In this document: positions 3,068 to 47,608 of the stretch, piece after piece
Layout: every line of letters starts with the position of its first letter
How positions within the stretch are numbered: the first letter of the stretch is position 1
DNA from: Candidatus Aegiribacteria sp.
GTDB lineage: Bacteria; Fermentibacterota; Fermentibacteria; Fermentibacterales; JCC-6
Assembly (NCBI GenBank): GCA_023138735.1
Contig: JAGLOY010000105.1
Coordinates: 393 to 64,392, forward strand
Length of the DNA stretch: 64,000 nucleotides
Reading direction: 5' to 3'
The notes under the pieces: generated by a model
What the model was told of the DNA's origin: nothing
The model's database searches: none
The model's input: only the letters and a program-made list of their open reading frames with translations
Translations under genes and position numbers: made by a program

Positions 3068-3438
3068 TGAAGTTAGTGAGATGGATTTCCGGCACAATAG
3101 TCCTGCTGGCTATTATTATACTTGTTATCGTGCTTCCATTCAGAAGTATGTTTTTCTCGCAGGACGCATCGCATATCGGCTTTGTCGGCAGGGTTGTATA
3201 TATACTGATACTCTCTTCGGTACTGATCCTGTTCAGGGTTCTCAAGGGTCCGACAGCCGCAGACAGGATAGTTGCCATTGATATTTTCGGCATACTGATC
3301 GTTGGTCTCTGTGCAGTGCTCGGCATCGCAACAGGCCGTTCATGGTACATCGATATCGGCATCGCCTGGGGGCTTCAGAGCTTCATCGGCACACTGGCTC
3401 TTGCCAAGTATCTGGAGGGAAGAAGCTTCGATGATTGA
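3067..3438 (+). CDS. mrpF: Mrp/Mnh antiporter subunit F
   Basis: 123 aa with three TM helices. LKGPTAADRIVAIDIFG resembles the MnhF signature. Start abuts the mrpE stop. Confidence 0.7.
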   Translation: MKLVRWISGTIVLLAIIILVIVLPFRSMFFSQDASHIGFVGRVVYILILSSVLILFRVLKGPTAADRIVAIDIFGILIVGLCAVLGIATGRSWYIDIGIAWGLQSFIGTLALAKYLEGRSFDD

Positions 3439-3769
3439 TATAATCGGAATGGTATTCATTGGAACAGGGCTGGCATTTGATGTTCTCGGCTGTCTGGGTC
3501 TTGTAAGACTTCCGGATGTCTACAACAGGCTGCAGGCAGCAACGAAATGTGTAACGCTGGGAACGTGCAGCATTCTTTTTGGAACGTTCCTTATGACCGG
3601 GGGATTCACACCGACAGGTTTTAAGGCTCTGATAGCAATTGTATTCCTTGTTCTCGCATCACCTGTAGCGGCGCACGCCATTTCGCGCGGGGCGCACAGA
3701 GCTGGAATCAAGCTCTGGGACAAAAGCGTAGTGGACAGTTATGCGGAAGACAATGAAGGAGAAAAATAG
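3431..3769 (+). CDS. mrpG: Mrp/Mnh antiporter subunit G
   Basis: Internal ATG 3431 overlaps the mrpF stop. LGLVRLPDVYNRLQAATK matches the MnhG signature. Confidence 0.75.
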   Translation: MIDIIGMVFIGTGLAFDVLGCLGLVRLPDVYNRLQAATKCVTLGTCSILFGTFLMTGGFTPTGFKALIAIVFLVLASPVAAHAISRGAHRAGIKLWDKSVVDSYAEDNEGEK

Positions 3770-3808
3770 ATTAACGGACCGCGAAAGCGATTCGTTACGG
3801 ATGGGAAT

Positions 3809-4423
3809 ATGAAATATCCAAAGATCAGAGAAATCGTAGAAGCAGTCAAAGCGGTCGTAAAGGGTCCCTATACATCGAAATTCCCTGCAGAACCGCATAT
3901 AGCCCACCCCAATTTCAGGGGACAGCCGGTTTTCGACCAGGACAGGTGCCTCGGATGCCTTGCCTGTGAGGAATGCTGCCCTTCGGAAGCCATCGTGCAC
4001 GAAGACATCCTTGAAGGCGAAGGTTCTCCGAAAAGAGTGATGATCCATCATACGGATGACTGCATTTTCTGCGGTGTCTGTGTTGATTCATGTATAAGGG
4101 AAACCGGTGATACAGGCATAGTACAGACGAACGAATGGGAGCTCTCATACTTCGACCGCACCAAGGCTTTCGAGACCATAGAGAAGGATCTGCAGCTCTG
4201 CGAGGTATGCGGTGTTATTATCGGTACGAAAGACCATCTGATCTGGATAGCTGAAAAACTGGGCGAGCTCTCCTTTTCAAATCCTACTCTTTACCTGTCC
4301 AGACTCCGAAAACTCGGTCTTGCGGACGACAACATTCAGGCTGTACTCGAGGACAACGGCCGCAGCGACAGAGTGAAGATCCTCTGCGCCGAATGCAGGC
4401 GTAAAACCACCCTGTACGAGTAA
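3809..4423 (+). CDS. NuoI/HycF-like 2[4Fe-4S] ferredoxin-type protein with a C-terminal 4-Cys extension
   Basis: Two cluster motifs, CLGCLACEECCP and CIFCGVCVDSC. C-terminal CEVCG...CAECRRK pair. Confidence 0.75.
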   Translation: MKYPKIREIVEAVKAVVKGPYTSKFPAEPHIAHPNFRGQPVFDQDRCLGCLACEECCPSEAIVHEDILEGEGSPKRVMIHHTDDCIFCGVCVDSCIRETGDTGIVQTNEWELSYFDRTKAFETIEKDLQLCEVCGVIIGTKDHLIWIAEKLGELSFSNPTLYLSRLRKLGLADDNIQAVLEDNGRSDRVKILCAECRRKTTLYE

Positions 4424-4437
4424 ATTGGGGCCGGGCC

Positions 4438-4494
4438 TAACATCTAAACATTTTGACTGTTTATATTTAATATGTTGCAGATGTTTAGATGTTA
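4438..4494. repeat. 14-bp perfect inverted repeat TAACATCTAAACAT / ATGTTTAGATGTTA with a 29-nt AT-rich spacer
   Basis: Read directly at 4438-4451 and 4481-4494. Lies in the 128-nt gap between the ferredoxin gene and the endopeptidase gene. Confidence 0.8.
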
Positions 4495-4551
4495 AACCCG
4501 GATCCTAATTCATTTTGCCAAAATTCAAGATACGATCCCAATGAGACCCCA

Positions 4552-5028
4552 ATGACGAATAAGCAATTACAGATACTCAAAGGTAAGCTGCTCTTATACT
4601 TAAGGGGCAAAGTAGTTTACATGGGTATCGGCAATATCCTGAGGGGTGATGACGGCATCGGCCCCGAGCTGGTGGCCAGATTATCCGGGAAGGGTCTGCT
4701 CACGGTTGATGCTGGAACGGTTCCGGAGAATTACATACGCCCTGTTGCCAGGTTTGATCCTGACACGGTAGTTATCGTTGATGCTGTTAGTCTTGACAGG
4801 GAGCCCGGTGCTGTTGAATTGCTTGACAGAAGTGAGATAATGGGAAATACAGGCTTCACGACTCATACTCTTTCACCGGTAATGGTCATGGAAAGGCTGG
4901 AGGAAGAGACGGGAGCAAAGGTAGTCATGCTCGCCATTCAGCCCGGGACTCTTGAATTTGGTGCTCCACTGTCTCCTGAAGTAGCCAGTATGCTTGAGGT
5001 GCTGCCGGATCTACTGACCCGGGAGTAA
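4552..5028 (+). CDS. [NiFe]-hydrogenase maturation endopeptidase (HycI/HyaD family)
   Basis: GIGNILRGDDGIGPELV N-terminal signature. Start is uncertain: ATG at 4552 or 4621. Confidence 0.75.
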   Translation: MTNKQLQILKGKLLLYLRGKVVYMGIGNILRGDDGIGPELVARLSGKGLLTVDAGTVPENYIRPVARFDPDTVVIVDAVSLDREPGAVELLDRSEIMGNTGFTTHTLSPVMVMERLEEETGAKVVMLAIQPGTLEFGAPLSPEVASMLEVLPDLLTRE

Positions 5029-5029
5029 A

Positions 5030-6631
5030 GTGAGCACAGACATGAGCCATAAACCGGAAAGATCCTCAAGTGGAGAGACAGTAGTCGGTATTTTATTAAT
5101 TGCCGTTGTTGTTTCAGTATTTCTTCTTATCAGCACTTTCGGGGTTCAGCTTGTTGATGACGGCTATTACTATCTGGAAATCGCTCGGAATATCGCAAAC
5201 GGCAACGGTATTACCTTTGACGGATTGAATTCAACAAACGGTTTTCATCCATTATGGCAAATCATGCTTGTCCCGATTTTCCTGATGACTAAGAGTCGAA
5301 CCCTTGCTGCCATGGCTGTAACCATGCTGCAGACCCTGCTTTTTGCGGCAAGCGGTTATATGCTTTACAGGATCCTGCTTGAGAATACGAAGAAGATCTA
5401 CCTTTCCATAACCGGATCTGCTTTATGGCTTTTTAATTTCTGGTTCTGGAGCAAAGGAGCCCTTTCCGGGATGGAGACTGGACTTCTGATCTTATGTTTC
5501 GGGACAAGTATTCTTCTATTTTCCCGTTCACTTCGCGGATCATGCAGTTCATGGCTCCTCTCAATTTCTCTTATCGCGACCTGCACGGCAAGGCTTGATT
5601 CAGTTGCTCTGGTAATCGGGATCTGTGCTATCTTCCTGATTATCAGAAGGTATCGTGATGCCCTTCAAACAGGCCTTCCGGTTATGATCTATCTGATATT
5701 TTACATGGTAGCAAACAGGCTCATATTCGGAGGATTATTTCCCGTTTCGGGATACATTAAATCCGCTGCTGGCAGCGAACTTCTAAGACAGTTGTTTGAA
5801 AATGGGAATTTAAGGTTCTTCCAGCATGGAGCAGCGAATTTTGTCAGTTTTGCTACACTTGGAGGACGTCTTCCTCTTTTAGCAGCCCTTGTAGCTATCG
5901 CTGGAATTGTCTGGGCAGTGCTGCGGGTGATCAGAACTGCAGGCACTCCGATCAGAGAAGTAGTGGCGGTTTCCTGTATTTATACGGCAGCTCTTTTGCT
6001 CTACTACTCCTTCATGTACGATTCGCTTCTTGATATCTATACCTATTACTGGTTTCCGGTGATATTTTGTGCAATTATCTCATTTGTTCTAATACTATCA
6101 CGAATGAGGCTGAGGCTGCTCAGATCGGGTATTACGCTGATACTATTCGCCGGACTTATCGCTTTTAATATTGTTTATGCACATGATCGATTGCAGAGTT
6201 ACTCATTTGTGATACCTGATTCGGCCAGACCTGAGCGTAATGCTGTGAATTTTCTGAACACACTTGATGATGGGACTGTGATCGGATCCTGGGATGCAGG
6301 ATATGTAGGTTATTACTGCAGACATCGGGTCGTAAATCTGGATGGTCTTGTTAATAATTATGAGTATCAGGCTATCCTGCATGAACAGGGATTGGAAAAA
6401 TACCTTGTTATGCAGAACATTACATGTATCGCAAACATCGATCATTTTGCGGGCAAGAGAGACCTGATGGAACATATGAGTGGATGGTATATGGCTTTTG
6501 AGGATTCGAGCGCATTCCCCAATCCAGTTTCACTATTTTCAGTATCGGTGGATGAGAGTCGGTACGCGTCCGAACAATCCAGAATATTTTTCGTCTACTG
6601 CAGGTCAGATTCTCTTCATCCCGAAAACTGA
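5030..6631 (+). CDS. Polytopic membrane protein, possible GT-C-fold glycosyltransferase; paralog of 13783-15153
   Basis: About 12 hydrophobic segments. N-terminal loop VDDGYYYLEIARNIANGNG and C-terminal VVNLDGLVN are shared with the 13783-15153 protein. Function not established. Confidence 0.55.
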   Translation: MSTDMSHKPERSSSGETVVGILLIAVVVSVFLLISTFGVQLVDDGYYYLEIARNIANGNGITFDGLNSTNGFHPLWQIMLVPIFLMTKSRTLAAMAVTMLQTLLFAASGYMLYRILLENTKKIYLSITGSALWLFNFWFWSKGALSGMETGLLILCFGTSILLFSRSLRGSCSSWLLSISLIATCTARLDSVALVIGICAIFLIIRRYRDALQTGLPVMIYLIFYMVANRLIFGGLFPVSGYIKSAAGSELLRQLFENGNLRFFQHGAANFVSFATLGGRLPLLAALVAIAGIVWAVLRVIRTAGTPIREVVAVSCIYTAALLLYYSFMYDSLLDIYTYYWFPVIFCAIISFVLILSRMRLRLLRSGITLILFAGLIAFNIVYAHDRLQSYSFVIPDSARPERNAVNFLNTLDDGTVIGSWDAGYVGYYCRHRVVNLDGLVNNYEYQAILHEQGLEKYLVMQNITCIANIDHFAGKRDLMEHMSGWYMAFEDSSAFPNPVSLFSVSVDESRYASEQSRIFFVYCRSDSLHPEN

Positions 6632-10328: not shown

Positions 10329-11419
10329 AGTACGTTTCTGAATATCGGGACAAAGAATCGGCGCTTGCGTATACCGAACTGATCCGAGAGCTGGTCACCA
10401 GGGAATGGAGCATTATGGAGGTCTGCGGCGGGCAGACCCATTCAATTGTCAAATACGGTATTGATCAACTGCTTCCAGATTCCGTAACCCTTATTCACGG
10501 ACCTGGATGTCCTGTATGTGTAACTCCCATCGAGCTCATTGATCAGGCTGCCGAGATCGCCGGGCTTGCAAATGTTATTTTCTGTTCATTCGGGGATATG
10601 CTGCGTGTTCCCGGGAGCCGCAGTGACCTTCTGGGAGTGAAGGCATCAGGTGGAGATATCAGGATGGTCTATTCTCCGATAGATGCGATCCGGATTGCTG
10701 CTGCTAATCCGGACAAGGAGATTGTCTTCTTTGCGGTAGGTTTCGAAACTACTGCCCCTGTTACTGCAGCTGCTGTGCTTCAGGCTGAACATCTTGGTCT
10801 GGATAATTTCTCAATGCTTGTTTCTCATGTTCTGGTTCCGCCTGCAATCGAGGCTGTGCTGTCGGGTGAGAACTGTGCTATCCAGGGATTTCTTGCTGCG
10901 GGTCATGTATGTACTGTGATGGGGTATACGGAATACGAACCAATTGCGGAGAAGTATGGTGTACCGATAGTTGTGACTGGTTTTGAACCACTTGATATCC
11001 TCGAGGGCATTCACATGTGCCTGACACAGCTTGAAGAGGGCAGAACCAATGTAGAGAACCAGTACCTGCGGGCCGTCTCCAGGGATGGAAACAGGGCTGC
11101 TGTTGAAATAATGCGAAGCGTATTCGAGATAACGGACCGGAAGTGGCGTGGAATCGGCAGAATTCCCTCCAGTGGATTCATGCTCAGGGAAAGGTTCACC
11201 AGATTCGATGCAGGAAGGAAATTCGATGTTGGAAGTATTGAAGTTGATGAACCTGCGATCTGCATTTCCGGTGAGGTTCTAAGGGGGAATAAGAAGCCTC
11301 CCGAATGTGCTGCTTTTGGTAATGATTGTACTCCCGAACACCCTCTTGGAGCGCCGATGGTCTCATCTGAAGGTGCCTGCGCAGCTTATTACCGTTTCAG
11401 ACTGGCCAGGGGAAAATAA
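10325..11419 (+). CDS. hypD: Hydrogenase maturation factor HypD
   Basis: Motifs [14 protein letters not shown] and GFETTAP. Overlaps the hypC stop. Confidence 0.95.
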
Positions 11420-12474
11420 TGAACAACAGCAGAATAACTGAAATGATATGCCCGATTCCTCTTTCCGATTACCCCGAAATTACTATGGCTCATGGCGGCG
11501 GCGGAAGGCTTATGAACGATCTCATCGGGAGGGTCATCTTGAAGGCCTTCTCCAATCCCATACTGGATTCGAGACACGACGGTGCTGTTATTACTGCAGG
11601 GGAGGGAAGGCTGGCCTTCGCAACGGATTCGCATGTCATTACTCCGCTGTTCTTTCCCGGTGGTGACATCGGTGCTCTTTCCGTATATGGAACCGTAAAT
11701 GATCTTGCCATGTGCGGAGCGGATGCAAGGTGGCTCAGTGCCGGTTTCATCATAGAAGAAGGCTTCTCTATGGAGACCCTCTGGAGGATCGTAGTTTCGA
11801 TGGCCGAAGCATCCAGGAAAACGGGTGTATTGATAGTTACTGGAGATACAAAGGTGGTGGACAGAGGTAAGGGAGACGGCATTTATATTAATACTGCTGG
11901 AATAGGCATCATTCCGGAGGGAATCGATGTATCTCCGTCAAGAATATGTGAAGGTGATGTGGTAGTCCTGAGCGGTGACATCGGCAGACACGGTATAGCT
12001 ATAATGGCTGTTCGTGAAGGTATTAAGCTGGAAGGAGCGATCCGCAGCGATCTGGCCCCCCTCGATTCCATGGCCCGGGATCTCATTCGGGAAGGGCTGG
12101 ATATACACTGCATGAGGGATTTGACGCGGGGAGGTCTTGCCAGCGGATTGAATGAGATAGCTTCTATGACCGATTGCTCCATCAGGATAGAGGAGAATTC
12201 AATCCCTGTTCACGATGAGGTTCTGGGTGCATGTGAGATCCTTGGTTTTGATCCTCTTTACGTAGCTAATGAGGGCAGGTTCGTAGTCATCCTTCCAAGG
12301 GAAAACGGGGATAAGGCTGTGGAGATTCTCAGGCGGCACGAAAACGGTCATCAGGCTGAGATAATCGGTTCTGTGGAGAAATCTTCCTACGCTGACCTGT
12401 TGATGATCAGCAGTATAGGTTCGGAGAGGATTGTTGATATGATGAGCGGCGAACAGCTGCCCCGGATCTGCTGA
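11419..12474 (+). CDS. hypE: Hydrogenase maturation factor HypE
   Basis: PurM-like fold. Terminal PRIC motif ends the protein. Confidence 0.95.
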
Positions 12475-15153: not shown

Positions 15154-15449
15154 ACCGATTTTATCACCTCTGCCGGCCTTCCCGTCAAGGGCGGCAGAAA
15201 ACTTTTTGCAGTGGACACGGACTCCGTGTCATATTAAAATTACGGTGTGTTTTGACTTGGAGCTTATCCTTCAATGTGTACCGAGCAGAGAGCCTCGCAG
15301 CTTAGATGGAATGCTTGCAGATTTGAGGAGAATACTAGAAGTATTTGACGATAATAAGCGGGTATTATAGCCAGCTGTGTGGGTTCTATACCGATGCTTC
15401 ATTGTTGGATATGTTCCGAGATTACTGAGCCACCCGGGAGACTGCTTAC

Positions 15450-15821
15450 TTGAGAATAATTGGAGTTGGAATAGATATTGTTGACATCGGTATTTTCAAA
15501 AGCCGTCTAGATGATGGCATGGTAGGTGAATTGTTCCTTCCCGGGGAAATTGAATACTGTTCAACCAGAGCTCGCCCATGGGAAAGCTATGCGGCAAGAT
15601 TCGCTGCGAAGGAAGCATCTTTCAAAGCGCTGGGTATCGGATTGTCACATGGATTGCGCTGGAAAAATATTGAAGTGATAAAAGATGAATCCGGTGCAGT
15701 ATCCGTTCAGCTCAGCGGGAAAGCACTGGAACAAGCAAGAAATATACAGGTAAAGCAGATACGTCTTTCCATCAGTCATTCAGGAGAGAATGCCATTGCA
15801 GTTGTCACGATGGAAGGTTGA
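15450..15821 (+). CDS. acpS: Holo-[acyl-carrier-protein] synthase (4-phosphopantetheinyl transferase)
   Basis: TTG start. GVGIDIVDI and ISISHSGENA motifs. 123 aa. Confidence 0.85.
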   Translation: MRIIGVGIDIVDIGIFKSRLDDGMVGELFLPGEIEYCSTRARPWESYAARFAAKEASFKALGIGLSHGLRWKNIEVIKDESGAVSVQLSGKALEQARNIQVKQIRLSISHSGENAIAVVTMEG

Positions 15822-17599
15822 TTACGTGTCGCAGGATTGGAGGAATCCACTTGAGTAATATCGGATCCTATGTGGAGAGAATACAGAATTTCAACTGGGA
15901 GATTGCAAAGGATGTTCTTGACTGGAAGGAAGGAGAACTTCTTAACATTGGAGCCATCTGTTCGGACAGAATCTGCACCAGAGGTGATGGGAAGAAGACA
16001 GCCCTCATATGGGAAGGTTTCGGTGATAAGAGCGCCAGGTATACTTTCGACGATCTCAGGGTCTATTCGAACGGTTTTGCTGAATTCCTCAGTGAGTTGG
16101 GAATCGAACCCGGAGACAGGGTATGTCTCTTCATGGACAAGATCCCGAGCCTCTATTTTTCATTTCTTGGTGTCCTCAAGCTTGGTGCAATTGCACAGCC
16201 GCTTTTCTCGGCATTTGGTGATGAGTCGCTTGAAGTGAGACTCGCCAGTGCGGGAACCAGGGCAATCATCACAACTCGCAAGCATGTCAGGAAAGTCCGT
16301 AAAATCAAGGACAGACTGCCGAATCTGGAGAAGATCATTGTTGTAGAGGGAAATCCTGACAAACTCAAGGAAGGGGAAATATTCTTCGATGTGGAGAACA
16401 GTGCCAGAATTGAAGAATTCGATGTCTATAAATCATCACCTGAAACTCCTTCTGTTCTTCATTACACATCTGGTACAACAGGTCAGCCTAAGGGAGCACT
16501 TCATGTTCATAATTCCGTTTGGGGCCAGGCGCTGACAGCCAGCTGGGTGCTTGATCTGCAGGATGATGATGTTTACTGGTGTACCGCGGATCCAGGATGG
16601 GTTACCGGAACAAGCTACGGTATCATCGGACCCTGGGCGCTGGGCGTTACGCAATGTGTTCTGGATTCAGGATTTACTTCTTCGAGATGGTACAAATTCA
16701 TTCAGGATAACAGGATAACTGTATGGTATTCAGCCCCTACCGCCATAAGGGCGCTTATGAAAGATGGTGATGAACTGGTCGGTGATTTCGATCTCTCTTC
16801 GCTTCGCCATCTCGCTTCAGTTGGTGAACCACTGAACGCTGAGGCGGTCATATGGAGCGGGGAAGTATTCGACGGGCTTAAATTCCATGACACATTCTGG
16901 CAGACGGAAACCGGTTCCATAATGATTACGAACTATCCCGGAATGGAAATACGCCCCGGATCAATGGGAATGCCTTTTCCCGGCATCAATGCCGCAGTTC
17001 TTGACCTGACCACACACTTGCCGTTAAACGAGGCCGGTAAGGTTGGACTGATAGCTTTCAGTCCCGGCTGGCCATCAATGTTCAGGCAGTACTGGAAGAA
17101 GCCGGACATCTACCGAAGCAAATTTGTAGGAGCTTCTCCCAATGCAATGCCGGATGAACTCAGAACCAATCCAGATCTCTGGTACGTCTCGGGAGACAGG
17201 GCAAGCATAGATAAGGATGGATACTACTGGTTCGTTGGCAGGGACGATGATGTTATAAATACAGGAGGTCATCTCGTGGGTCCCTTCGAGATTGAATCAG
17301 CCCTTGTTGAGCATGAAGCTATCGCCGAGGCTGCTGCGATTGGTAAACCTGATAAAGTCAACATGGAAGTCGTTAAGGCATTTGTCACATTGAAACCAGG
17401 TTTCGAGCCTTCGGATGACCTTGAACTGGACATCATGAATTTCATCAGAAAAAGACTATCTCCTCTGGCGATGCCCCAGGAGATCGAGTATCGTGATAAA
17501 CTTCCTAAAACACGTTCGGGCAAGATAGTAAGAAGGTATCTCAGAGCAATTGAATGGGGAGAAGAGGTTGGTGATATCTCATCCCTTTCCGATGAATAG
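15818..17599 (+). CDS. ACS/MACS-family AMP-forming acyl ligase (short or medium-chain type)
   Basis: Motifs YTSGTTGQPKG, FWQTETGS and PKTRSGKIVRRYL. Start is uncertain: TTG 15818 overlaps the acpS stop. Confidence 0.85.
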   Translation: MITCRRIGGIHLSNIGSYVERIQNFNWEIAKDVLDWKEGELLNIGAICSDRICTRGDGKKTALIWEGFGDKSARYTFDDLRVYSNGFAEFLSELGIEPGDRVCLFMDKIPSLYFSFLGVLKLGAIAQPLFSAFGDESLEVRLASAGTRAIITTRKHVRKVRKIKDRLPNLEKIIVVEGNPDKLKEGEIFFDVENSARIEEFDVYKSSPETPSVLHYTSGTTGQPKGALHVHNSVWGQALTASWVLDLQDDDVYWCTADPGWVTGTSYGIIGPWALGVTQCVLDSGFTSSRWYKFIQDNRITVWYSAPTAIRALMKDGDELVGDFDLSSLRHLASVGEPLNAEAVIWSGEVFDGLKFHDTFWQTETGSIMITNYPGMEIRPGSMGMPFPGINAAVLDLTTHLPLNEAGKVGLIAFSPGWPSMFRQYWKKPDIYRSKFVGASPNAMPDELRTNPDLWYVSGDRASIDKDGYYWFVGRDDDVINTGGHLVGPFEIESALVEHEAIAEAAAIGKPDKVNMEVVKAFVTLKPGFEPSDDLELDIMNFIRKRLSPLAMPQEIEYRDKLPKTRSGKIVRRYLRAIEWGEEVGDISSLSDE

Positions 17600-17618
17600 G
17601 TAACAGAAAGGAACTCAA

Positions 17619-17867
17619 ATGGATAAAATGAAGGAAACAGTACTCGAGTATATAGTCGATGAGTACCTTGATGAAGATGATGAGGATGTAGTATCCTATG
17701 ATTCTCCCCTGATCTCTTCAGGTATTGTCGACAGCTTCTCAATGGTCTCACTTAAAAGATTCATTGAGAATAAGTACAGCATCAAGCTTCCAGATGAAGA
17801 AGCTACACCTGAAGCTTTCGATACAGTGAACTCAATCTGCAGACTGGTTAACCAACATCTGGGATAA
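17619..17867 (+). CDS. Stand-alone acyl/peptidyl carrier protein
   Basis: 82 aa and acidic. Phosphopantetheine-site-like GIVDSFSMVSL. Confidence 0.7.
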   Translation: MDKMKETVLEYIVDEYLDEDDEDVVSYDSPLISSGIVDSFSMVSLKRFIENKYSIKLPDEEATPEAFDTVNSICRLVNQHLG

Positions 17868-17883
17868 ACGGAGGTAGGATCGT

Positions 17884-19131
17884 ATGGCATTTTCAGACAG
17901 TACAAGAAGCCTGTTTGCGGACGAAATAAAGCAGATAAAGGAAGATGGCCTCTTCAAGGAAAAAAGATTCATCTGCTCCGAACAGGACGCGGAAATAGAA
18001 GTTGAGTATCCCGAGGGTGCCCCCCACGAGAAAGTCCTCAATTTCTGTGCTAATAATTATCTGGGACTTTCAAGTCATCCGGATGTGATCAAGGCTGCCC
18101 ACGAAGGTCTTGATACCCGAGGCTACGGAATGAGTTCCGTCCGGTTCATATGCGGTACACAGGATATACACAGGGAACTCCAGGATAAGGTGTCCGTCTT
18201 TCTGGGTATGGAAGACACACTTCTATTCCCATCCTGCATGGATGCCAATTCCGGTGTTTTTGAGGCGATACTTGGCCAGGAGGACGTAATAATAGCCGAC
18301 AGGCTCATCCATGCATCCCTCGTAGACGGCATACGCCTCTGTTCTGCAGACTACGATACTTTCAAGCATATGAACATGAAACATCTGGAGAAGAAACTCG
18401 AGCTTCACCAGGACAAGAGAACAAGGCTTGTTGTTACTGACGGTGTGTTCTCTATGGACGGTGATCTTGCGCCTCTGGATGAAATGGTGGACCTTTGCAA
18501 GCGATACGACGCCATGCTGCTTGTGGATGACTCCCATGCCTCAGGTTTCATAGGAAAAACCGGCAGGGGAACCCATGAGCATTTTGGCGTTATCGACGGC
18601 ATTGATCTTATTACAACTACTTTCGGAAAAGGGTTGGGAGGAGCTTCCGGCGGCTGTGTATCCGGCAGGAGTGAACTTGTAGAACTCTGCCGCCAGAAGG
18701 CCAGGCCATACCTCTTCAGTAATTCCCTTGCGCCTCCTATTGTCAACGGTTCCATCAAGGTCATCGATCTCATCTCAAGCTCAACTGAGCGTCGTGACAA
18801 ACTTGAATGGAACACGAAGTACTTTCGTGAGAAGATGGAGGAAGCCGGGCTCGATATGCGTCCCGGTGTGACACCGATCGTTCCGGTAATGCTGTACAAT
18901 GCTAAACTGGCGAACGATATGGCCAGGGATATGTACGCTGAGGGAATTTATGTTATTGGATTCTGTTTCCCGGTTGTTCCTGCTGGAAAGGCCAGAATAC
19001 GTGTACAGCTTTCAGCAGCCCATGAGAAGGAACACCTTGATAAGTGTGCCGGGGCTTTCAGAAAAATAGGCGATAAGTACGGAATACTCGGTCTTGGCAA
19101 GAATGAGATAATCGAGAAGTACGGCAGATAA
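17884..19131 (+). CDS. PLP-dependent alpha-oxoamine synthase of the Kbl (glycine C-acetyltransferase) clade
   Basis: FCANNYLGL, VRFICGTQD, DDSHASGF and PLP-lysine motif TFGKGLGG. Second Kbl-like gene in the window. Confidence 0.9.
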   Translation: MAFSDSTRSLFADEIKQIKEDGLFKEKRFICSEQDAEIEVEYPEGAPHEKVLNFCANNYLGLSSHPDVIKAAHEGLDTRGYGMSSVRFICGTQDIHRELQDKVSVFLGMEDTLLFPSCMDANSGVFEAILGQEDVIIADRLIHASLVDGIRLCSADYDTFKHMNMKHLEKKLELHQDKRTRLVVTDGVFSMDGDLAPLDEMVDLCKRYDAMLLVDDSHASGFIGKTGRGTHEHFGVIDGIDLITTTFGKGLGGASGGCVSGRSELVELCRQKARPYLFSNSLAPPIVNGSIKVIDLISSSTERRDKLEWNTKYFREKMEEAGLDMRPGVTPIVPVMLYNAKLANDMARDMYAEGIYVIGFCFPVVPAGKARIRVQLSAAHEKEHLDKCAGAFRKIGDKYGILGLGKNEIIEKYGR

Positions 19132-19143
19132 TCAAAACCTGAG

Positions 19144-19176
19144 GGGGACACGTGTACGCTGCGTGTCCCCATTTAA
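19144..19176. terminator. Putative intrinsic terminator between convergent genes
   Basis: 9-bp perfect GC-rich stem GGGGACACG / CGTGTCCCC (19144-19152 / 19162-19170), followed by ATTTAAT. Confidence 0.5.
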
Positions 19177-21026: not shown

Positions 21027-21380
21027 ATGGAAAAACTTCACAAAATACTGGAAGGACTTGTAGAAGTCAGCGGTATTGATGTTGCAGTCGTCGTTGGACG
21101 AGACGGATTCGTTATCGATGCTGCATCAACCGGCACATCTGATACAGAAGCCATAGGAGCGATGGTTTCCACCGGTCTGGGTTCAGCTGAAAGTGTCGGT
21201 CGTGAGCTGGGACTTGAGGAAATGGATCAGGCGATGATGGAGTACAAGAACGGTATAGTTATGATGACTGCACTGGGCAGCGACGCTCTTCTCGTTGTTG
21301 TTGCATCCAAGGATGCAAATCTAGGAGGAATCCGTCTTCAGGTAAGAAGAAGCGCTCCCAAACTTGTGGAAGCACTTTAA
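21027..21380 (+). CDS. Roadblock/LC7 (MglB-like) domain protein
   Basis: 117 aa. VSGIDVAVVVGRDGFVIDA ... ALLVVVASKDANLGGIRL pattern is typical of Roadblock/LC7. Confidence 0.8.
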   Translation: MEKLHKILEGLVEVSGIDVAVVVGRDGFVIDAASTGTSDTEAIGAMVSTGLGSAESVGRELGLEEMDQAMMEYKNGIVMMTALGSDALLVVVASKDANLGGIRLQVRRSAPKLVEAL

Positions 21381-21413
21381 TTAATCTAATTACCGGAAGC
21401 AGGTTCTCTTCGG

Positions 21414-21917
21414 ATGCAATTACCAAAAAATGAAGATACCAAGACTATCGAGGATCTTCTCTCTGGACTTGTTCGGCGTTCCGAAGCCATTACCGCTCTG
21501 CTGATAAGCAGGGAGGGTATCTGCATAAGTAAAGTCGGTAACGTGGAATCATTGAATTCTACAGCCCTTGCCGCACTTGTAGCGGGAATGTTCGCAGCTA
21601 CAAAGGAAGTGGCGAATATAGTCGGGGAAGAACAGTTTTCAATTCTGCTGCAGCAGGGAGAGAAGCGTCATATTCACATTTCTCTGATAGGCCAGAGAAG
21701 TATGATGATAGTCGTTTTTGAAGATTACAGAAGGATTGGACGTGTACGGCATGAGGCCCGGACAATCAGTCCCGATCTTGTCAGGTTACTCGAGAGCAGA
21801 GAAAAATCCAGGAAAGAGGATGCAGATGATCTTTCTGTTCCTGAGTTCAGGGAATATGCTCTGAATCTCATCGACAGGATATTTGTGGTTGGTGAAGAGG
21901 AAGATGCCTCATCTTGA
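21414..21917 (+). CDS. Roadblock/LC7 domain protein with a charged C-terminal extension
   Basis: ITALLISREGICISKVG ... MMIVVFEDYRRIGRV Roadblock-like core. Confidence 0.65.
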   Translation: MQLPKNEDTKTIEDLLSGLVRRSEAITALLISREGICISKVGNVESLNSTALAALVAGMFAATKEVANIVGEEQFSILLQQGEKRHIHISLIGQRSMMIVVFEDYRRIGRVRHEARTISPDLVRLLESREKSRKEDADDLSVPEFREYALNLIDRIFVVGEEEDASS

Positions 21918-22488
21918 TCCGATAGAGAAGCAGATTGTTTTCAAGATCGTGTACTTTGGTCCTGGTATGAGTGGTAAAACAACGAATCTGCTCTACATTC
22001 ATAAGGCCTTGATTGACAAGTATAAGGGAGAGATGTTGGTTCTAGATACGGAAAAGGAGAGAACCCTGTTTTTTGATTTCTTTCCAGTTTCGCTTGGAAC
22101 CGTTCAAGGTTATTCCCTTAAGTTTCACCTGTATACCATTCCCGGACAGATATTCTACGAAGCGAGTCGAAGGATCATACTCCTCGGTGCCGATGGTGTG
22201 GTGTTTGTTGCTGACTCATCAGCTGACAGACTGGACGATAATACTGAAATGTTCAGGTTGATGAATGAGAATCTCAGAAGTCATGATATCGACCCATCGT
22301 GTTTCCCTGTTGTATTGCAGTACAATAAGCGCGATCGTAATCCCAGGCTTGAGATTGGCTCAATAGAGCAAGAGCTTGGATTGGACAACATTCCCGTTAC
22401 CGAATCGATAGCTATCGAGGGTAAAGGAGTCATGAAAACACTGCAGGTTGTCAGTAAGGAGATTATAAAGCGTTTTCAGATAAGCTGA
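21904..22488 (+). CDS. mglA: MglA-family Ras-like small GTPase
   Basis: KIVYFGPGMSGKTTNL P-loop, MglA-specific PGQ G3 motif (HLYTIPGQIFY), and QYNKRD G4. Collinear similarity to Myxococcus MglA as I recall it. Confidence 0.9.
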   Translation: MPHLDPIEKQIVFKIVYFGPGMSGKTTNLLYIHKALIDKYKGEMLVLDTEKERTLFFDFFPVSLGTVQGYSLKFHLYTIPGQIFYEASRRIILLGADGVVFVADSSADRLDDNTEMFRLMNENLRSHDIDPSCFPVVLQYNKRDRNPRLEIGSIEQELGLDNIPVTESIAIEGKGVMKTLQVVSKEIIKRFQIS

Positions 22489-22512
22489 TGCGGAAAGGAT
22501 TACACATCTTTT

Positions 22513-23205
22513 ATGGCCATTAACGGTACACTGAGCGATATAGGTTTCGTTTCACTGCTCCAGTTTCCCAATTCCAGCAGAAAGACAGGTTTGCTTACAG
22601 TGATAACCATGGATGGCAAGGCCGAGTTCTACTACAGAAAAGGTGAACTTGTACATGCCAGGTACGGTAAGATGACTGGTATTGAAGTTCTTGTTGATAT
22701 TGTGGATTGGAATGAAGGCCAGTTCACTTTTGAACCCGATCTGGAACCGGATGAGACGACAATCAAGGATGATCTTCACCATGTTCTCATGTGGGCACTC
22801 AAGGAACGGGATGAGAGAAAGAAGGATCAGAATGAGAATGGCGGCACTCCTGAAGTAGAACTCGATGCCGAGCTTTCAGAAAAACTGGATGAACTTATGA
22901 AAGCTGCCTCAGGTATCGAGTACATCTGCATATTTACCACTCTTGGACAGCTTGTTGCCAGATCGATGTCTGATAGCAGTTTTCTTCAGGAAATTGAACC
23001 ATTCATGGAATCCATAACCTGTTTTATCTCTGAATACCCGGGTGGGGTAACAGGAAAAGTGTTTATCGAGGATATCAATATTTCAATCGCAATCTCGGGT
23101 CTTGATGAACAGCAGACGGTTGTCATTGCGACCGGTCCTTCTCTGAAACTTGGAAGGCTGGCCATGGCTCTGGGCAGAATTATAAGAGAATTAACCGGAG
23201 TATAG
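22513..23205 (+). CDS. DUF4388 (PATAN-like) domain protein with a C-terminal Roadblock-like domain
   Basis: N-terminal GTLSDIGFVSLLQF...GELVHARYG...EGQFTFEP pattern. C-terminal half has the Roadblock-like alternation. Confidence 0.65.
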   Translation: MAINGTLSDIGFVSLLQFPNSSRKTGLLTVITMDGKAEFYYRKGELVHARYGKMTGIEVLVDIVDWNEGQFTFEPDLEPDETTIKDDLHHVLMWALKERDERKKDQNENGGTPEVELDAELSEKLDELMKAASGIEYICIFTTLGQLVARSMSDSSFLQEIEPFMESITCFISEYPGGVTGKVFIEDINISIAISGLDEQQTVVIATGPSLKLGRLAMALGRIIRELTGV

Positions 23206-38795: not shown

Positions 38796-39086
38796 TATTC
38801 TTTACAATAATTATCGGAAATCATTCATTTACGGAGGTGGTACATGTATATGCGTAATCGCATCTGATCTGCAGCCATGAACTCCGTGAGAGTTCGGATA
38901 TACAAACACGCAGCAAGTTGCTGTCTCCTCATATGAACTGACTCCCTGTTAATTCACAGCAGCCATGCTGTGAAACAGTGGAGGAGGTATTATTGTGCTG
39001 CAGCCATCCGCAGCCTTTTCATGAATGCGAACAATTCTCTCTGATAAGTGAAAACGAGATCACAAATTGTATTTCAGGAGGTTGTA

Positions 39087-40100
39087 ATGAAAAGGATAGC
39101 GCAAATTATTATACTCATTGTACTATCAAGTGTCGTGTTTGGTGCAGATAGAGTCGTTCTGCTTGAGGATTTCACGAATTGCGGATGCGGTCCCTGCTGG
39201 AGCTTCGAACCAACTTTGAATGCTTTCATAAGCAGCCACCCCAATGACCTTGCCGTCGTCCGGCCGCACGTTTCATGGCCATCCGGCTCAGATCCCATTT
39301 ATCTGGCGAATCCAGCTGAGCAGAACTTCCGTAAGAGTATTTACGGAGTGAATTCGGTTCCATGGATTCAATTTGGCGGAACCATAAAAGCATCCAACAG
39401 TTCCGGCGGATTGATAAGTGCTTTCAACTCCAGAATGGCCGTTCCGTGCCATCTGGAAATCCAGGTGGAGAATTACGTGATCTATGGGAGCGGTACGATA
39501 CAGATCACACTCATTGCTGAGGAGGACCTGGGTGATACGGATCTGAAAGTTCATGCGATCATAGTAGAAAGCGGAATACCCGGTGTTGGTTACTTTGCAA
39601 GCTCAACTTTCGAGCAGGCATTCAGAGAGGAACTGTTCGGAGCCACCGGGCAGGATGTAAGTTTCGGACCATCGTATCCGGATACCGTTGTTGTAAATGT
39701 GGATTATGACACCGGCGGCTGGGTATTCGAAAATCTTCAGCTGGCAGTGTTCGTACAGAATCATGCTTCTTCAGGTACGGAAGTACATAACGCCTTCTTC
39801 GAATATCTTGGAGCTGTAACAGGTCTGGAAGGGGATGATCCTGAAGAACTGAATACGGTTGAACTGATAGTACAGATCTCTCCTAATCCCTCAAGTGGAA
39901 GTATTTCACTTTCAGCAGGAGATCTTTATGAGGGGACGGGTGTTCTTGCAATTTACGATACAAGCGGAAGGTGTATAGCAAACGGGACCGTCAATGAAGA
40001 TGCCGTATCTCATTTTGAGATCGACGAAACCGGAGTGTACTTTGCAAGGGTAACCTCTGGCGGTAAGACAGCCACCTCAAGAATTGTTGTTGTCAGGTAG
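39087..40100 (+). CDS. Secreted thioredoxin-fold (CGPC) protein with a T9SS-type C-terminal sorting domain
   Basis: AGGAGG RBS before ATG 39087, signal peptide, DFTNCGCGPCW motif, and a C-terminal ISPNPSSGSISL...GVYFARV...RIVVVR tail. Confidence 0.7.
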   Translation: MKRIAQIIILIVLSSVVFGADRVVLLEDFTNCGCGPCWSFEPTLNAFISSHPNDLAVVRPHVSWPSGSDPIYLANPAEQNFRKSIYGVNSVPWIQFGGTIKASNSSGGLISAFNSRMAVPCHLEIQVENYVIYGSGTIQITLIAEEDLGDTDLKVHAIIVESGIPGVGYFASSTFEQAFREELFGATGQDVSFGPSYPDTVVVNVDYDTGGWVFENLQLAVFVQNHASSGTEVHNAFFEYLGAVTGLEGDDPEELNTVELIVQISPNPSSGSISLSAGDLYEGTGVLAIYDTSGRCIANGTVNEDAVSHFEIDETGVYFARVTSGGKTATSRIVVVR

Positions 40101-40888: not shown

Positions 40889-42097
40889 ATGAAAATGTAT
40901 ACTGAAAGGTTTCGGGATATATTGAGATCCAACCTTGAAAAGACCGAGGAGAACGGTACGTTCAAGAGGGAAAGGATCATTACATCAAGGCAGGGAACCT
41001 TCGTCGATGTTGAGCATTCGGGGGAAGTTCTCAATTTCTGCGCGAACAACTACCTGGGGCTTTCAGGTGATCAGAGACTGGTTGACACGGCATGCGAAAT
41101 ACTTGAAGAGCGTGGTTATGGCCTTTCATCTGTTCGCTTCATATGCGGTACACAGGATATTCATAAGGAGCTTGAGAGAAAGATATCGAGTTTCCTCGGT
41201 AAGGAAGACACAATACTCTATTCCAGCTGTTTCGATGCTAATGGAGGCCTTTTTGAGCCTCTCCTGACGGATGCAGATGCCATTATCTCAGATCAGCTGA
41301 ACCATGCTTCCATCATCGACGGGATAAGACTCTGCAAGGCAAAAAGGTATCGTTACAGCCACGCTGACCTTGAGGATCTTGAAGCCGTTCTTATCCATGC
41401 ACGAAGCGCGAGGATCAAAGCCATCGTCACCGACGGTGTGTTTTCCATGGACGGGGAGATAGCGCCGCTTCCCGGCATCTGTGATCTGGCAGAAGAATAT
41501 GGAGCTTTACTTATCGTCGATGACTCCCACGCAACGGGATTCATCGGAGAGTCTGGAAGGGGCAGTATCGAATACCATGGAGTGACCGATAGAGTGGATA
41601 TCGTAACATCAACCTTCGGGAAGGCGCTCGGAGGAGCTTCGGGAGGGTTCACCACAGGGCCGGCGGAAGCGATCGAGATGCTCAGACAGCGATCCAGACC
41701 CTACCTGTTCTCCAATACAGTTGCTCCGGTAATAGTAGGAACGACTCTTGCGGTCATCGATATAATCGAAAGATCCAGTGAAGAGAGGGACAGGCTCAGG
41801 GAGAACCAGAGACGCTTCAGAAGAAGAATGACTGATGCTGGGTTCAGAATTATCAAAGGAGACCATCCAATCGTACCGGTTCTTTTCGGTCATCTTCCGG
41901 GCGATGCAGCACTTGCACAGAGATTCGCTGATGAACTTCTCTGGAAGGGTATTTATGCAATAGGATTCTTCTATCCGGTTGTTCCCCAGGGGGAGTCAAG
42001 GATACGGATCCAGATTTCAGCAGCCCACACGATGAAACAGGTGGATACGTGTGTTGAAGTGTTCATAGATGTCGGTAAAAAACTTGGAGTGCTGTAG
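40889..42097 (+). CDS. kbl: 2-amino-3-ketobutyrate CoA ligase (glycine C-acetyltransferase)
   Basis: FCANNYLGL, VRFICGTQDIHKELE, LCKAKRYRY, DDSHATGF and TFGKALGG motifs. Collinear with E. coli Kbl as I recall it. Confidence 0.9.
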   Translation: MKMYTERFRDILRSNLEKTEENGTFKRERIITSRQGTFVDVEHSGEVLNFCANNYLGLSGDQRLVDTACEILEERGYGLSSVRFICGTQDIHKELERKISSFLGKEDTILYSSCFDANGGLFEPLLTDADAIISDQLNHASIIDGIRLCKAKRYRYSHADLEDLEAVLIHARSARIKAIVTDGVFSMDGEIAPLPGICDLAEEYGALLIVDDSHATGFIGESGRGSIEYHGVTDRVDIVTSTFGKALGGASGGFTTGPAEAIEMLRQRSRPYLFSNTVAPVIVGTTLAVIDIIERSSEERDRLRENQRRFRRRMTDAGFRIIKGDHPIVPVLFGHLPGDAALAQRFADELLWKGIYAIGFFYPVVPQGESRIRIQISAAHTMKQVDTCVEVFIDVGKKLGVL

Positions 42098-44779: not shown

Positions 44780-46114
44780 CTACAATGCACTTTCAATGCC
44801 GTGCGCATAAGGAATGTCTGGAGGATTTCCCTTAGGAGGAAGCGACCAGTAGTAGTAAAGCTGGTCAATTGTTTCCCTGCCGGGCACCAGAGGATCCTGT
44901 TCGGCAGGATCATTGGAAAGGTCATATAGTACAGGTGAACCTTCTACAGGATTTCCCATCACTACCATATCATCAAGTCTTATAGCTGCCATATCCGGAG
45001 TTGCAGATACTAGATTGCTTGAAGTTATAAACCTTGACGTTCGGGGTGATTCGGTGCTGAGAATATCTTTTCCGTCGACCCAGATAGGAATATCCAGACC
45101 CGATATACCAAGTATCGTAGGCAGAATATCGAACTGGGCGACAACTTCATCGTTTACACCGATGGGTATGCTGCGGCCGGATATAATCAATGGTACGTCC
45201 AGTATTTCCTGATAGAGAGTGTGCCCATGGCCGAAGCCGCCATGATCCAGAAATTCTTCTCCATGGTCTCCAACGATTACGAAAACGGTGTTATGCAGTG
45301 TACCCCTGGCATCAAGTTCAGATAGCAGCCGACCGATCTGACTGTCCGTGAAAGCGAGTTCGCCATCGTAAAGTCCCACCATGATCTCAAGCTGGGTTGG
45401 ATTCATTTCAACGAGGTTCTGGTTCAGGTCAAGCACATCGTTCCCGCGACCCCAGAAAATATTGAAGAGATCATCGGACTTCGGGTCGGAGTAAAGAGTA
45501 TCCCATGGGGGTGGCGGAGAGTATGGAAGGTGCGGGTCGACGAAATGAATTGCCGAGAAGAGAGGCTTTGTAGAATCCCGATGTGTATCGTACCATACAA
45601 GGAAATCGTTAATCGTGTCTTCGGCATTCCGAAGGCTTGCTTTGCCCCGAGCGCCCTGACAGTCAAAATGGTCAAAACCTTGATTGAAACCGAAATCCTC
45701 GTTAATAAAGACCGAATTGTAGAAGGCAGCTGTCTGGTATCCAGCACCGCGCCTTATCATCAGGGGGATTGTGGGAAGGGCGACATCGATGCCGTACATA
45801 GTATCATTGTAATAGCCTGCTCCGTGAGCCCTCTGGGATAGACCTGTCATGATTGATGCCATTGCGGGAAGAGTCCAGCTGCTCTGCCCCTGAACATTGG
45901 TCCATATTGTTCCGCTTGAAGCAAGGCTGTCCTGCACGGGGGTAGTCTCTCTGTGGTATCCGTTTATTGAGAGATGGTCGGCCCGTGCGGAATCGATAAG
46001 AATAAGGACTATATCAGGATATCTGCTTAAACAAGTATCCCCGTCGCCGCATCCTGACAGGATAAGTACCGGGATAATCAATACGAACAGAAGGGCACCT
46101 GTTAAATTAATCAT
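44780..46114 (-). CDS. Sulfatase-family lipoprotein; paralog of 32640-34016
   Basis: Lipobox ILSGC. LILIDSARADHL, WTLPAMAS, VGDHGEEFLDHG motifs. ATG overlaps the thiC stop (TAATG). Confidence 0.8.
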   Translation of the reverse strand: MINLTGALLFVLIIPVLILSGCGDGDTCLSRYPDIVLILIDSARADHLSINGYHRETTPVQDSLASSGTIWTNVQGQSSWTLPAMASIMTGLSQRAHGAGYYNDTMYGIDVALPTIPLMIRRGAGYQTAAFYNSVFINEDFGFNQGFDHFDCQGARGKASLRNAEDTINDFLVWYDTHRDSTKPLFSAIHFVDPHLPYSPPPPWDTLYSDPKSDDLFNIFWGRGNDVLDLNQNLVEMNPTQLEIMVGLYDGELAFTDSQIGRLLSELDARGTLHNTVFVIVGDHGEEFLDHGGFGHGHTLYQEILDVPLIISGRSIPIGVNDEVVAQFDILPTILGISGLDIPIWVDGKDILSTESPRTSRFITSSNLVSATPDMAAIRLDDMVVMGNPVEGSPVLYDLSNDPAEQDPLVPGRETIDQLYYYWSLPPKGNPPDIPYAHGIESAL

Positions 46115-47418: not shown

Positions 47419-47431
47419 GTCTGTATTTTCA

Positions 47432-47518
47432 TTCTCCCTCCGCTGGTGCTAACCAGATCAGGTTCATAGGGTATGTTCTCAGCCTTGTTAACCTGGATTG
47501 TCAAGGCACCCCCTGTAT
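47432..47518 (-). promoter_or_regulatory. TPP (THI-box) riboswitch upstream of thiC
   Basis: Minus-strand read: GGGGTGCC...GCTGAGAA...ACCCTATGAACCTGATCTGGTTAGCACCAGCGGAGGGAG. Ends about 15 nt before the thiC ATG. Confidence 0.85.
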
Positions 47519-47608
47519 AGAAACTCCAGTATCTATTCTTAACAGTTTGGATTGAAAGTCAAGTGCGCTTCGAGCAGATTTTCATTATTGTTCTGCTGGA
47601 GGTGAGAG

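Follow-up and report, generated by a model that had tools for sequence, protein, structure and literature searches.

A conserved four-gene operon that may run the glycine C-acetyltransferase reaction on a dedicated carrier protein in uncultured bacteria

Introduction

Glycine C-acetyltransferase (Kbl) is a pyridoxal 5′-phosphate (PLP)-dependent alpha-oxoamine synthase that interconverts acetyl-coenzyme A (acetyl-CoA) plus glycine and 2-amino-3-ketobutyrate, and L-threonine 3-dehydrogenase (Tdh) links the latter to L-threonine, as in the Escherichia coli kbl-tdh pair; Marcus and Dekker are said to have run the coupled Tdh/Kbl pair in reverse in vitro in 1993. Relatives with the same fold take thioesters bound to a carrier, namely E. 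coli BioF with pimeloyl-acyl carrier protein (pimeloyl-ACP; 8dle) and the Alistipes cysteate acyl-ACP transferase SulA (7u7h), both of which draw on the general fatty-acid ACP, use long or functionalized acyl groups and decarboxylate their product. The entry module of Caulobacter-type sphingolipid synthesis consists of the synthase Spt, a dedicated ACP and an acyl-ACP synthetase, an arrangement in which a free acid is activated and attached to a private carrier by an adenylating enzyme, and the carrier in turn supplies an alpha-oxoamine synthase. Here, we describe a four-gene operon, referred to below as the cassette, in a 64,000-nucleotide stretch (hereafter the window) of contig JAGLOY010000105.1 from Candidatus Aegiribacteria sp. 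(Fermentibacterota; assembly GCA_023138735.1, positions 393 to 64,392 of the forward strand), which comes from a cold-seep or marine sediment habitat. The cassette joins a Kbl-clade synthase to a stand-alone carrier protein, an acetyl-CoA synthetase-type ligase and a 4′-phosphopantetheinyl transferase (PPTase).

We consider the chances about even that this operon carries out a carrier-protein-dependent version of the Kbl reaction, which we favor as condensing toward threonine, a reading drawn from sequence and synteny. In the proposed scheme, AcpS would turn the 82-aa apo-carrier into its phosphopantetheinyl form, the ligase would adenylate acetate and pass the acetyl group to the carrier thiol instead of, or strongly over, CoA, and the synthase would reversibly condense PLP-bound glycine with the resulting acetyl-S-carrier to give 2-amino-3-ketobutyrate and free holo-carrier. 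Threonine dehydrogenase would connect 2-amino-3-ketobutyrate to L-threonine, and a canonical, CoA-dependent Kbl would be retained alongside the cassette.

Compared with the classical Tdh-Kbl system (1fc4, 7bxp, 7v58), the cassette has the same Kbl equivalog assignment, catalytic residues, fold (template modeling (TM) score ~0.9) and pairing with Tdh, but it differs by its dedicated carrier, ligase and PPTase, by a coexisting canonical Kbl, and by a synthase whose separate clade evolves more slowly and is set off by a 5-aa insert, a remodeled CoA-adenosine region and a C-terminal helix. By sequence, structure and partner, the cassette falls within the Kbl family; the CoA donor is the exception, and here the evidence points away from CoA. 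With the Caulobacter sphingolipid module, the cassette shares a carrier gene beside the synthase (75 of 80 testable cassette loci), whereas its synthase is of the Kbl and not the SPT clade, its ligase has an acetate rather than a long-chain pocket, and Tdh, Kbl and an acetate transporter stand nearby instead of a ceramide synthase or ketosphinganine reductase. The likeness is an analogy of logic only, and the chemistry is most likely the same acetyl plus glycine/2-amino-3-ketobutyrate interconversion on a private thiol carrier. BioF and SulA, both of which are among the structural matches found here, would likewise differ from the cassette, for which we propose a private carrier resembling a peptidyl carrier protein, a C2 acyl group and non-decarboxylative Kbl chemistry. 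The layout of a free-standing ligase beside a free-standing carrier recurs in DltA/DltC, PltF/PltL, PigI/PigG and Bmp4/Bmp1-CP, which include the nearest solved carriers; however, those ligases are adenylation domains of the nonribosomal peptide synthetase type for amino acids, whereas the cassette ligase is of the Acs family with an acetate pocket. To our knowledge, the only well-known case in which ATP-dependent ligation attaches acetate to a protein-bound thiol to serve a C-C lyase or condensation reaction is that of citrate lyase and malonate decarboxylase with CitC, systems that differ in using phosphoribosyl-dephospho-CoA, in the unrelated folds of their ligase and lyase, and in having no PLP enzyme.

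Results and discussion

Cassette layout and synthase

The four genes lie on the forward strand and comprise acpS, encoding an AcpS-type PPTase of 123 aa with a TTG start (15450-15821), an AcsA-type adenylating ligase of 593 aa, the proposed acetate:[carrier protein] ligase (15818-17599), the stand-alone carrier protein of 82 aa with a pI of ~4.1 (17619-17867), and the Kbl-clade synthase of the cassette subtype, with 415 aa (17884-19131). The acpS and ligase genes overlap by 4 nt (TTGA), and 19 nt separate ligase from carrier and 16 nt carrier from synthase. This packing (-4/19/16 nt), together with a hairpin at 19144-19170, had been described in an initial annotation made from the letters of the window, and all of it was confirmed. 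The same holds for the motifs quoted there, VRFICGTQD (residues 86-94) and TFGKGLGG (246-253) in the synthase and FWQTETGS (360-367) in the ligase, and for the identities of two further genes on the forward strand, a canonical, CoA-type kbl paralog (40889-42097; 402 aa; TIGR01822, 608.3 bits versus a cut-off of 493) and tdh, encoding a Tdh of the short-chain dehydrogenase/reductase (SDR) type (49611-50570; 319 aa; 412 bits to 7cgv and 347 to 2yy7).

The cassette synthase passes the Kbl equivalog model TIGR01822 (EC 2.3.1.29) with 566.2 bits, and its AlphaFold2 model, with a mean predicted local distance difference test (pLDDT) score of 89, superimposes on the Kbl structures 7bxp, 7v58 and 1fc4 with TM scores of 0.89-0.93. 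Models for SPT give 319.8, 279.9 and 241.3 bits against cut-offs of 640, 500 and 670, respectively, and the best solved matches are Kbl rather than SPT. The PLP-binding Lys249 is kept, and 81 alignment columns are invariant across 85 cassette and 15 canonical Kbl sequences, among them, in E. coli numbering, N50, V79, H136, S185, D210, H213, T241, K244, S274, N275 and R368. With 49% identity to the canonical Kbl of the same window and monophyly of the cassette synthases in 50 of 50 neighbor-joining bootstraps, apart from a paraphyletic canonical Kbl group that includes the E. coli enzyme, the synthase is a distinct paralog within the Kbl clade, as the initial annotation had it. Every one of the 78 same-genome pairs shows stronger conservation of the cassette synthase than of the canonical Kbl (mean identity 74.7% versus 59.5%). 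The clade is marked by the 5-residue insert E41-x-P-x-G45, by M119, by a 13-residue C-terminal extension with a predicted helix at 406-413, and by substitutions including S109P, F112M, A128V and L264C.

A further difference lies in the region that is predicted to contact the adenosine part of CoA. Cassette synthases have S154, Y157, D158, T159 and K161 where canonical Kbl has K/R/Y/R/x: the canonical K147 (15/15), R150 (15/15) and R152 (11/15), all retained in the canonical Kbl of the window, are mostly replaced by S, Y/H/Q and T, and D158 and K161 are new near-invariant residues of the cassette clade. In the synthase model, the remodeled segment forms a strand (156-160) after helix 144-152, just past the helix of the catalytic His. 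R150 is the catalytic His+14 residue, on the strand after the His helix, with the same layout and spacing as Lys156 of Rhodobacter capsulatus 5-aminolevulinate synthase (ALAS), an equivalence set by spacing and secondary structure and not by a solved Kbl-CoA complex. ALAS Lys156 forms part of the lining of the CoA adenosyl pocket, with a hydrogen bond to the ribose, and the equivalent K221V change raises the Km for succinyl-CoA 23-fold (PMC4615937). The loss of K147, R150 and R152 hints against acetyl-CoA as the donor, or CoA as the acceptor, of the cassette synthase. As a separate candidate feature, a basic docking surface on the cassette synthase was considered and rejected, the net charge being -6.9 compared with -5.1 for canonical Kbl and the shift a local one only.

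Three members of the cassette clade serve as a natural control. The loci L021, L023 and L040 of our survey (see below) encode cassette-clade synthases (L021:3617-4858, L023:1134-2375 and L040:8001-9242) and are devoid of carrier, ligase, AcpS and canonical Kbl; they are Eisenbacteria-like, lie beside Tdh and are syntenic with L002, which has the full set. All three synthases combine K/R147 with R150. Furthermore, I152 together with E at the K161 position is found in these three only among the 85 sequences from the loci, and in none of 240 further database homologs. They look like carrier-type synthases that were re-adapted to CoA after loss of the carrier, and this reversal of the CoA-adenosine residues fits a carrier dependence of the other clade members.

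Ligase and acid specificity

The ligase consists of the PF00501 (AMP-binding) and PF13193 (AMP-binding_C) domains and scores 725 bits on the acetate-CoA ligase equivalog model NF003313, a marginal miss of the cut-off of 729; its best solved relative is the Bacillus subtilis-type AcsA 9g79 (530 bits). Residues V262, T263, V335 and W361 correspond to V310, T311, V386 and W414 of Salmonella enterica Acs (2p2f), and among the 69 cassette ligases the first three positions of this acetate pocket are invariant and W414 is present in 68. Trp414 is the chain-length gate, whose place is taken by Gly in medium-chain enzymes (PMC10455477). Because the acetate pocket is kept, including this gate, the acid used by the ligase is predicted to be acetate, or at most propionate.

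Of the three arginines that the CoA half-reaction requires (R191, R526 and R584 of Acs), R526 is altered. Position L486 replaces Arg526 of Acs, and Leu stands there in all 69 cassette ligases within a cleanly aligned motif (GGHLVG versus GHRLG or GERVG); Ser523 is changed to Gly in 68 of the 69, and the W413 position holds F or Y. In Acs enzymes, Arg526 stabilizes the thioester-forming state, and the equivalent R528A variant of AcsMt could not be saturated with CoA. The ligase accordingly resembles AcsA and Acs in its acetate pocket, adenylation motifs, catalytic Lys569 (K609 in Acs) and R584, but differs from them in these three positions, in its sub-cut-off score and in always having a carrier gene after it. 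As evidence for the carrier as acceptor, the ligase sequence is suggestive only. Relative to AcsA and Acs, the ligase of the window also has a 14-aa insertion, SPNAMPDELRTNPD, at residues ~440-453 (window ~17135-17176); it is present in Fermentibacteria ligases and missing from Zixibacteria members such as L047, and is specific to the lineage and no mark of the family.

Carrier protein and AcpS

The carrier passes the PF00550 (PP-binding) gathering score with 22.6 bits versus 20.8, and its predicted phosphopantetheine site, Ser39, lies as D38-S39 in the motif GIVDSFSMVSLK, which is invariant across 77 orthologs. It is closer to type II peptidyl and aminoacyl carriers than to fatty-acid ACPs, and is not a carrier of the AcpP type that serves fatty acid synthesis; the nearest solved proteins are Bmp1-CP (6cxt, E 4e-11), PltL, PigG and DltC. 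Its likeness to type II carriers whose loading is the task of stand-alone adenylating enzymes would favor the carrier rather than CoA as recipient of the acetyl group. A single-sequence AlphaFold2 model of the carrier, too weak to rely on (pLDDT 51), places helices at 3-17, 42-53 and 64-80, with Ser39 just before the second. The best NCBIfam match of the carrier, the OlsH/OlsI ornithine-lipid ACP model NF052616, was rejected as an assignment with 56.4 bits versus a cut-off of 130 and an unrelated context, and no GH3-like OlsH or OlsI gene was detected near the cassette. AcpS matches PF01648 (61.6 bits) and scores above the cut-offs of both TIGR00516 (67.7 versus 59.8) and TIGR00556 (87 versus 45).

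A second pair of an ANL ligase and a carrier is encoded in the Zixibacteria locus L072 (12304-14165, minus strand); it is 23% identical and unrelated to the cassette.

Conservation of the cassette

We surveyed 83 loci with synthase orthologs at least 67% identical to that of the window and 414-415 aa long, all from metagenome-assembled genomes (MAGs) or metagenomes. They cover at least 14 phylum-level lineages, with labels that include Fermentibacteria, Eisenbacteria, Krumholzibacteria, Fibrobacterota, Gemmatimonadota, Zixibacteria, Calditrichota, Cloacimonadota, Bacteroidota/Ignavibacteriales, Acidobacteriota/Aminicenantes, Verrucomicrobiota, Planctomycetota, Coatesbacteria, Stahlbacteria and Delongbacteria. 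The carrier lies directly upstream of the synthase in 75 of 80 testable loci and the ligase next to the synthase in 67 of 73; AcpS adjoins the cassette in at least 53, and all four genes stand together in at least 51, of 67 testable loci. Median gaps are 19.5 nt between carrier and synthase, 41.5 nt between ligase and carrier, and 17.5 nt between AcpS and ligase. The four-gene linkage is far beyond chance. Moreover, synthase, ligase and carrier all divide in the same way into two subtypes, at ~76-98% and 67-72% identity to the window, each present in several phyla, and this shared split indicates that the cassette moves and evolves as a unit.

Protein searches for cultured hosts return MAG or metagenome proteins only, and full-text searches of the literature yield no description of this cassette. 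The sequence of the window itself was not found in any RNA run searched; in one sediment metatranscriptome, low-depth contigs cover relatives of each gene as well as the AcpS-ligase and carrier-synthase junctions, which is weak evidence of transcription.

These data bear on the most conservative explanation, namely that ordinary genes are merely juxtaposed: an acetyl-CoA synthetase, a second CoA-dependent Kbl, a housekeeping PPTase and a carrier for an unrelated process. The curated models score the synthase as Kbl and the ligase nearly as AcsA, R584 and K609 of the ligase are kept, acpS is not in the cassette in about a fifth of the loci, and Acs followed by Kbl would be a coherent route from acetate and glycine via acetyl-CoA. 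However, the carrier is wedged between ligase and synthase with gaps of ~20-40 nt in 75 of 80 loci across these phyla, it is not of the AcpP type, and a separate canonical Kbl is kept beside the cassette. Furthermore, the basic CoA-adenosine residues are lost throughout the clade and regained exactly where carrier and ligase are absent, and the R526L change of the ligase is universal. We regard mere juxtaposition as quite improbable. The initial annotation had tied the synthase to a dedicated carrier, an ACS-type ligase and an AcpS, and had suggested that it depends on the ACP. When the relatives were checked for an absence of this linkage, it proved to be widely conserved, less tightly for AcpS than for the other genes, and the altered CoA-adenosine region, with its reversal in the three carrier-less members, fits the suggested carrier dependence.

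Gene neighborhood and product

Clustering of all neighboring open reading frames (ORFs) over the 83 loci identified few recurrent partners. An SDR-type Tdh adjoins the cassette or shares an operon with it in ~20 of the 83 loci (in the window, it is 30 kb away), often directly 5′ of acpS on the same strand (L042, L047, L052, L056, L069, L072 and L080). Seven further loci have a cluster of dehydrogenases of the zinc-dependent alcohol dehydrogenase (Zn-ADH) type, which are not homologous to the SDR-type Tdh; the one in L057 passes its Tdh equivalog model (530 versus 380), and the one in L053 has Tdh as its best, sub-threshold match (114 versus 458). Because two non-homologous types of dehydrogenase, both best matching Tdh, occupy the same place, the neighborhood argues for 2-amino-3-ketobutyrate itself as the point of the functional link. 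Canonical Kbl adjoins the cassette in 14 other loci, and an AceTr/SatP acetate transporter gene (NF038013, 247-280 versus 50) lies directly 3′ of the synthase in 5 loci from different lineages (L008:4021-4599, L009:5350-5913, L026:9154-9810, L028:9306-9848 and L042:6661-7224). In two Rikenellaceae (Bacteroidota) MAGs (L057:3325-9242 and L061:3385-9242), a Zn-ADH-type tdh, canonical kbl, ligase, carrier and cassette synthase follow one another on one strand, so that the two synthase paralogs are probably co-expressed there. Beyond Tdh, Kbl and AceTr, the neighbor clusters hold lineage-specific genes only, with no recurrent lipid, ceramide synthase, reductase, N-acyltransferase or other tailoring genes.

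In the Planctomycetota MAG locus L022 (5136-7300, minus strand, and 3342-5120), a carrier and a synthase, with no ligase nearby, are divergent to genes for a homoserine dehydrogenase and a MetX-like alpha/beta-hydrolase, with an SSF-family symporter close by. This arrangement is a single case.

The initial annotation had envisaged that a short or medium acyl group on the carrier is condensed with an amino acid into an amino-ketone other than the Kbl product, to serve as a lipid head group, signal or secondary metabolite; in a variant of this idea, 2-amino-3-ketobutyrate would be diverted to aminoacetone or pyrazines. The ligase-carrier-synthase logic is indeed that of the Caulobacter-type sphingolipid entry and of PigH/SxtA-type modules, the clade changes S109P, F112M and A128V near the PLP-phosphate loop could alter the acyl pocket, and 2-amino-3-ketobutyrate decarboxylates spontaneously to aminoacetone. 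Yet the four acetate-pocket residues, with the Trp414 gate, point to C2 or at most C3, so that a medium-chain acyl group is not borne out, and a product outside housekeeping Kbl chemistry is at odds with the invariance of all Kbl catalytic and substrate residues. These include V79, which we take to govern the amino-acid scope. A V79A variant of the Thermus enzyme has been crystallized (PDB 8s1y). A role in making a lipid head group or signal likewise finds no counterpart in the recurrent neighbors, which are Tdh, Kbl and the acetate transporter, or in the SPT models, which remain far below their cut-offs, and the very strong conservation across phyla resembles core rather than secondary metabolism. 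We judge such an amino-ketone pathway very unlikely.

Direction of the reaction

If the cassette runs the Kbl reaction on its carrier, the direction that we favor is synthesis, from acetate, glycine, ATP and NADH to threonine, although this is the weakest step of our account. A carrier kept fully acetylated by the AMP-forming ligase would, whatever the acetyl-CoA/CoA ratio, push the otherwise unfavorable non-decarboxylative Claisen condensation, and synthesis is favored because a Kbl condensation that has no decarboxylation to pull it gains from a fully acetylated thiol pool. That the cassette is an ATP-driven route from glycine and free acetate to threonine, in which the private carrier drives the reverse Kbl reaction uphill, is a tentative proposal, which we hold to be possible but doubtful.

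The same carrier chemistry might instead run catabolically. Tdh would oxidize threonine, the synthase would thiolyze 2-amino-3-ketobutyrate with holo-carrier to glycine and acetyl-S-carrier, and the ligase, reversed, would convert acetyl-S-carrier, AMP and pyrophosphate (PPi) to acetate and ATP, with acetate leaving through the AceTr channel. Tdh-Kbl is classically catabolic, thiolysis is thermodynamically favored, and the Acs reaction is near equilibrium if PPi is not hydrolyzed, with reverse Acs known in Syntrophus. Consistent with this direction, tdh heads the operon in the seven loci listed above and shares a strand with kbl, ligase, carrier and synthase in L057 and L061, and the hosts belong to anaerobic lineages of sediments and digesters, some of them predicted fermenters of amino acids including threonine (Cloacimonadota). 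However, a private carrier offers no obvious gain over CoA in catabolism, the combination of a dedicated carrier, a PPTase and an adenylating enzyme is typical biosynthetic logic, and the NCBIfam name of the adjacent transporter is acetate uptake transporter. In addition, Pta-AckA is already encoded in Fermentibacter genomes; according to the authors of those genomes, genes for amino-acid catabolism are lacking, and the few amino-acid pathways predicted include that of threonine (PMC5030696). The uptake type of the transporter and the Pta-AckA already at hand are further reasons why we favor synthesis, and the catabolic alternative, although a serious rival, seems unlikely to us.

Several observations weigh against a carrier-dependent Kbl reaction or against its proposed direction. 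Judged by hidden Markov model scores, the synthase counts as a genuine Kbl, and the ligase falls short of the AcsA cut-off by just 4 bits; the homologs are annotated as plain glycine C-acetyltransferase, and all come from uncultured MAGs or metagenomes. Arg584, which contacts the 3′-phosphate of CoA, is kept in 69 of 69 cassette ligases, and a conserved basic stretch stands where Acs has R191/R194, in a region that is not reliably alignable and in which B. subtilis AcsA differs as well. The cassette synthase is overall not more basic than canonical Kbl (-6.9 versus -5.1). The three revertants trace back to only one or two evolutionary events, and the genes for their carriers could lie outside these loci. 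The cassette acpS, the least constant member, may simply be the housekeeping enzyme. An exhaustive carrier search (62 representative clusters, E <= 1e-10) revealed no consistent carrier-synthase or ligase-carrier fusion, nearly all clusters being stand-alone proteins of 80-120 aa. With regard to direction, the loci show no linkage to thrB, thrC, pta or ackA and a single match to hom (L022), and the tdh-kbl-ligase-carrier-synthase run of L057 and L061 fits either direction.

Regulatory and other features of the window

A promoter-like site (TGGACA-17-TAAAAT; 10 of 12 consensus positions) lies 5′ of acpS at 15212-15240 on the forward strand, and the block GTGGACA...TATTAAAAT, a putative promoter, is kept in the close relatives L005-L012, L014 and L036. 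Between this block and the conserved ribosome-binding-site block, ~177 nt of the acpS leader (15256-15432) are missing in all close relatives; the stretch has no second copy in the window or the fetched loci, and we read it as an insertion. At the other end, 13 nt past the stop codon of the synthase, the GC-rich forward-strand hairpin at 19144-19170, GGGGACACG-N9-CGTGTCCCC, has a 9-bp stem and a folding energy of -19.7 kcal/mol (z = -3.4). Lacking a U-tract and not recognized by the terminator scan, it is only a possible terminator or stabilizer of the mRNA end. An Rfam search for riboswitches upstream of the cassette gave none in 9 diverse loci and, in the window, only a distant thiamine pyrophosphate (TPP) element. 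Antisense ORFs within the four genes (for example, 17269-17751 and 18405-18899, minus strand) are unsupported and were taken as shadows.

The TPP riboswitch (47418-47524, 61 bits) lies directly 5′ of thiC (46114-47418, minus strand), an ordinary arrangement. A run of small genes at 21027-23205 resembles, by eye, roadblock/LC7-type proteins and an MglA-like small GTPase, and the ORF at 11419-12474, ending in ...PRIC, is presumably related to the hydrogenase maturation protein HypE. Proteins encoded at 39048-40100 and 50646-52505 (minus strand) carry Por_Secre_tail domains, the C-terminal sorting domains of type IX secretion, consistent with a host of the Fibrobacterota-Chlorobiota-Bacteroidota group.

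Conclusions

In this work, we describe a cassette that might move central C2, glycine and threonine chemistry from CoA to a private protein thiol. If this reading is correct, thousands of genes in uncultured phyla that are automatically annotated as glycine C-acetyltransferase or acetate-CoA ligase would form a distinct pathway, and acetyl would join the short list of acyl groups that dedicated carriers deliver to alpha-oxoamine synthases. The co-occurrence of CoA-type and carrier-type Kbl in one genome, together with the natural revertants, provides a natural set for studying the choice of thiol partner, and such insight would be useful for engineering reverse-Kbl/Tdh routes for the assimilation of glycine and C1 compounds. 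Should the synthetic direction hold as well, the route would supplement or replace the aspartate pathway to threonine in many uncultured anaerobic phyla, among them Fermentibacteria, Cloacimonadota, Zixibacteria, Aminicenantes and Calditrichota, which on the basis of their genomes are often classed as amino-acid auxotrophs. With the carrier-dependent reading, reconstructions of the metabolism of abundant bacteria in sediments and digesters would change with respect to threonine auxotrophy or prototrophy, acetate assimilation and the energy yield from threonine.

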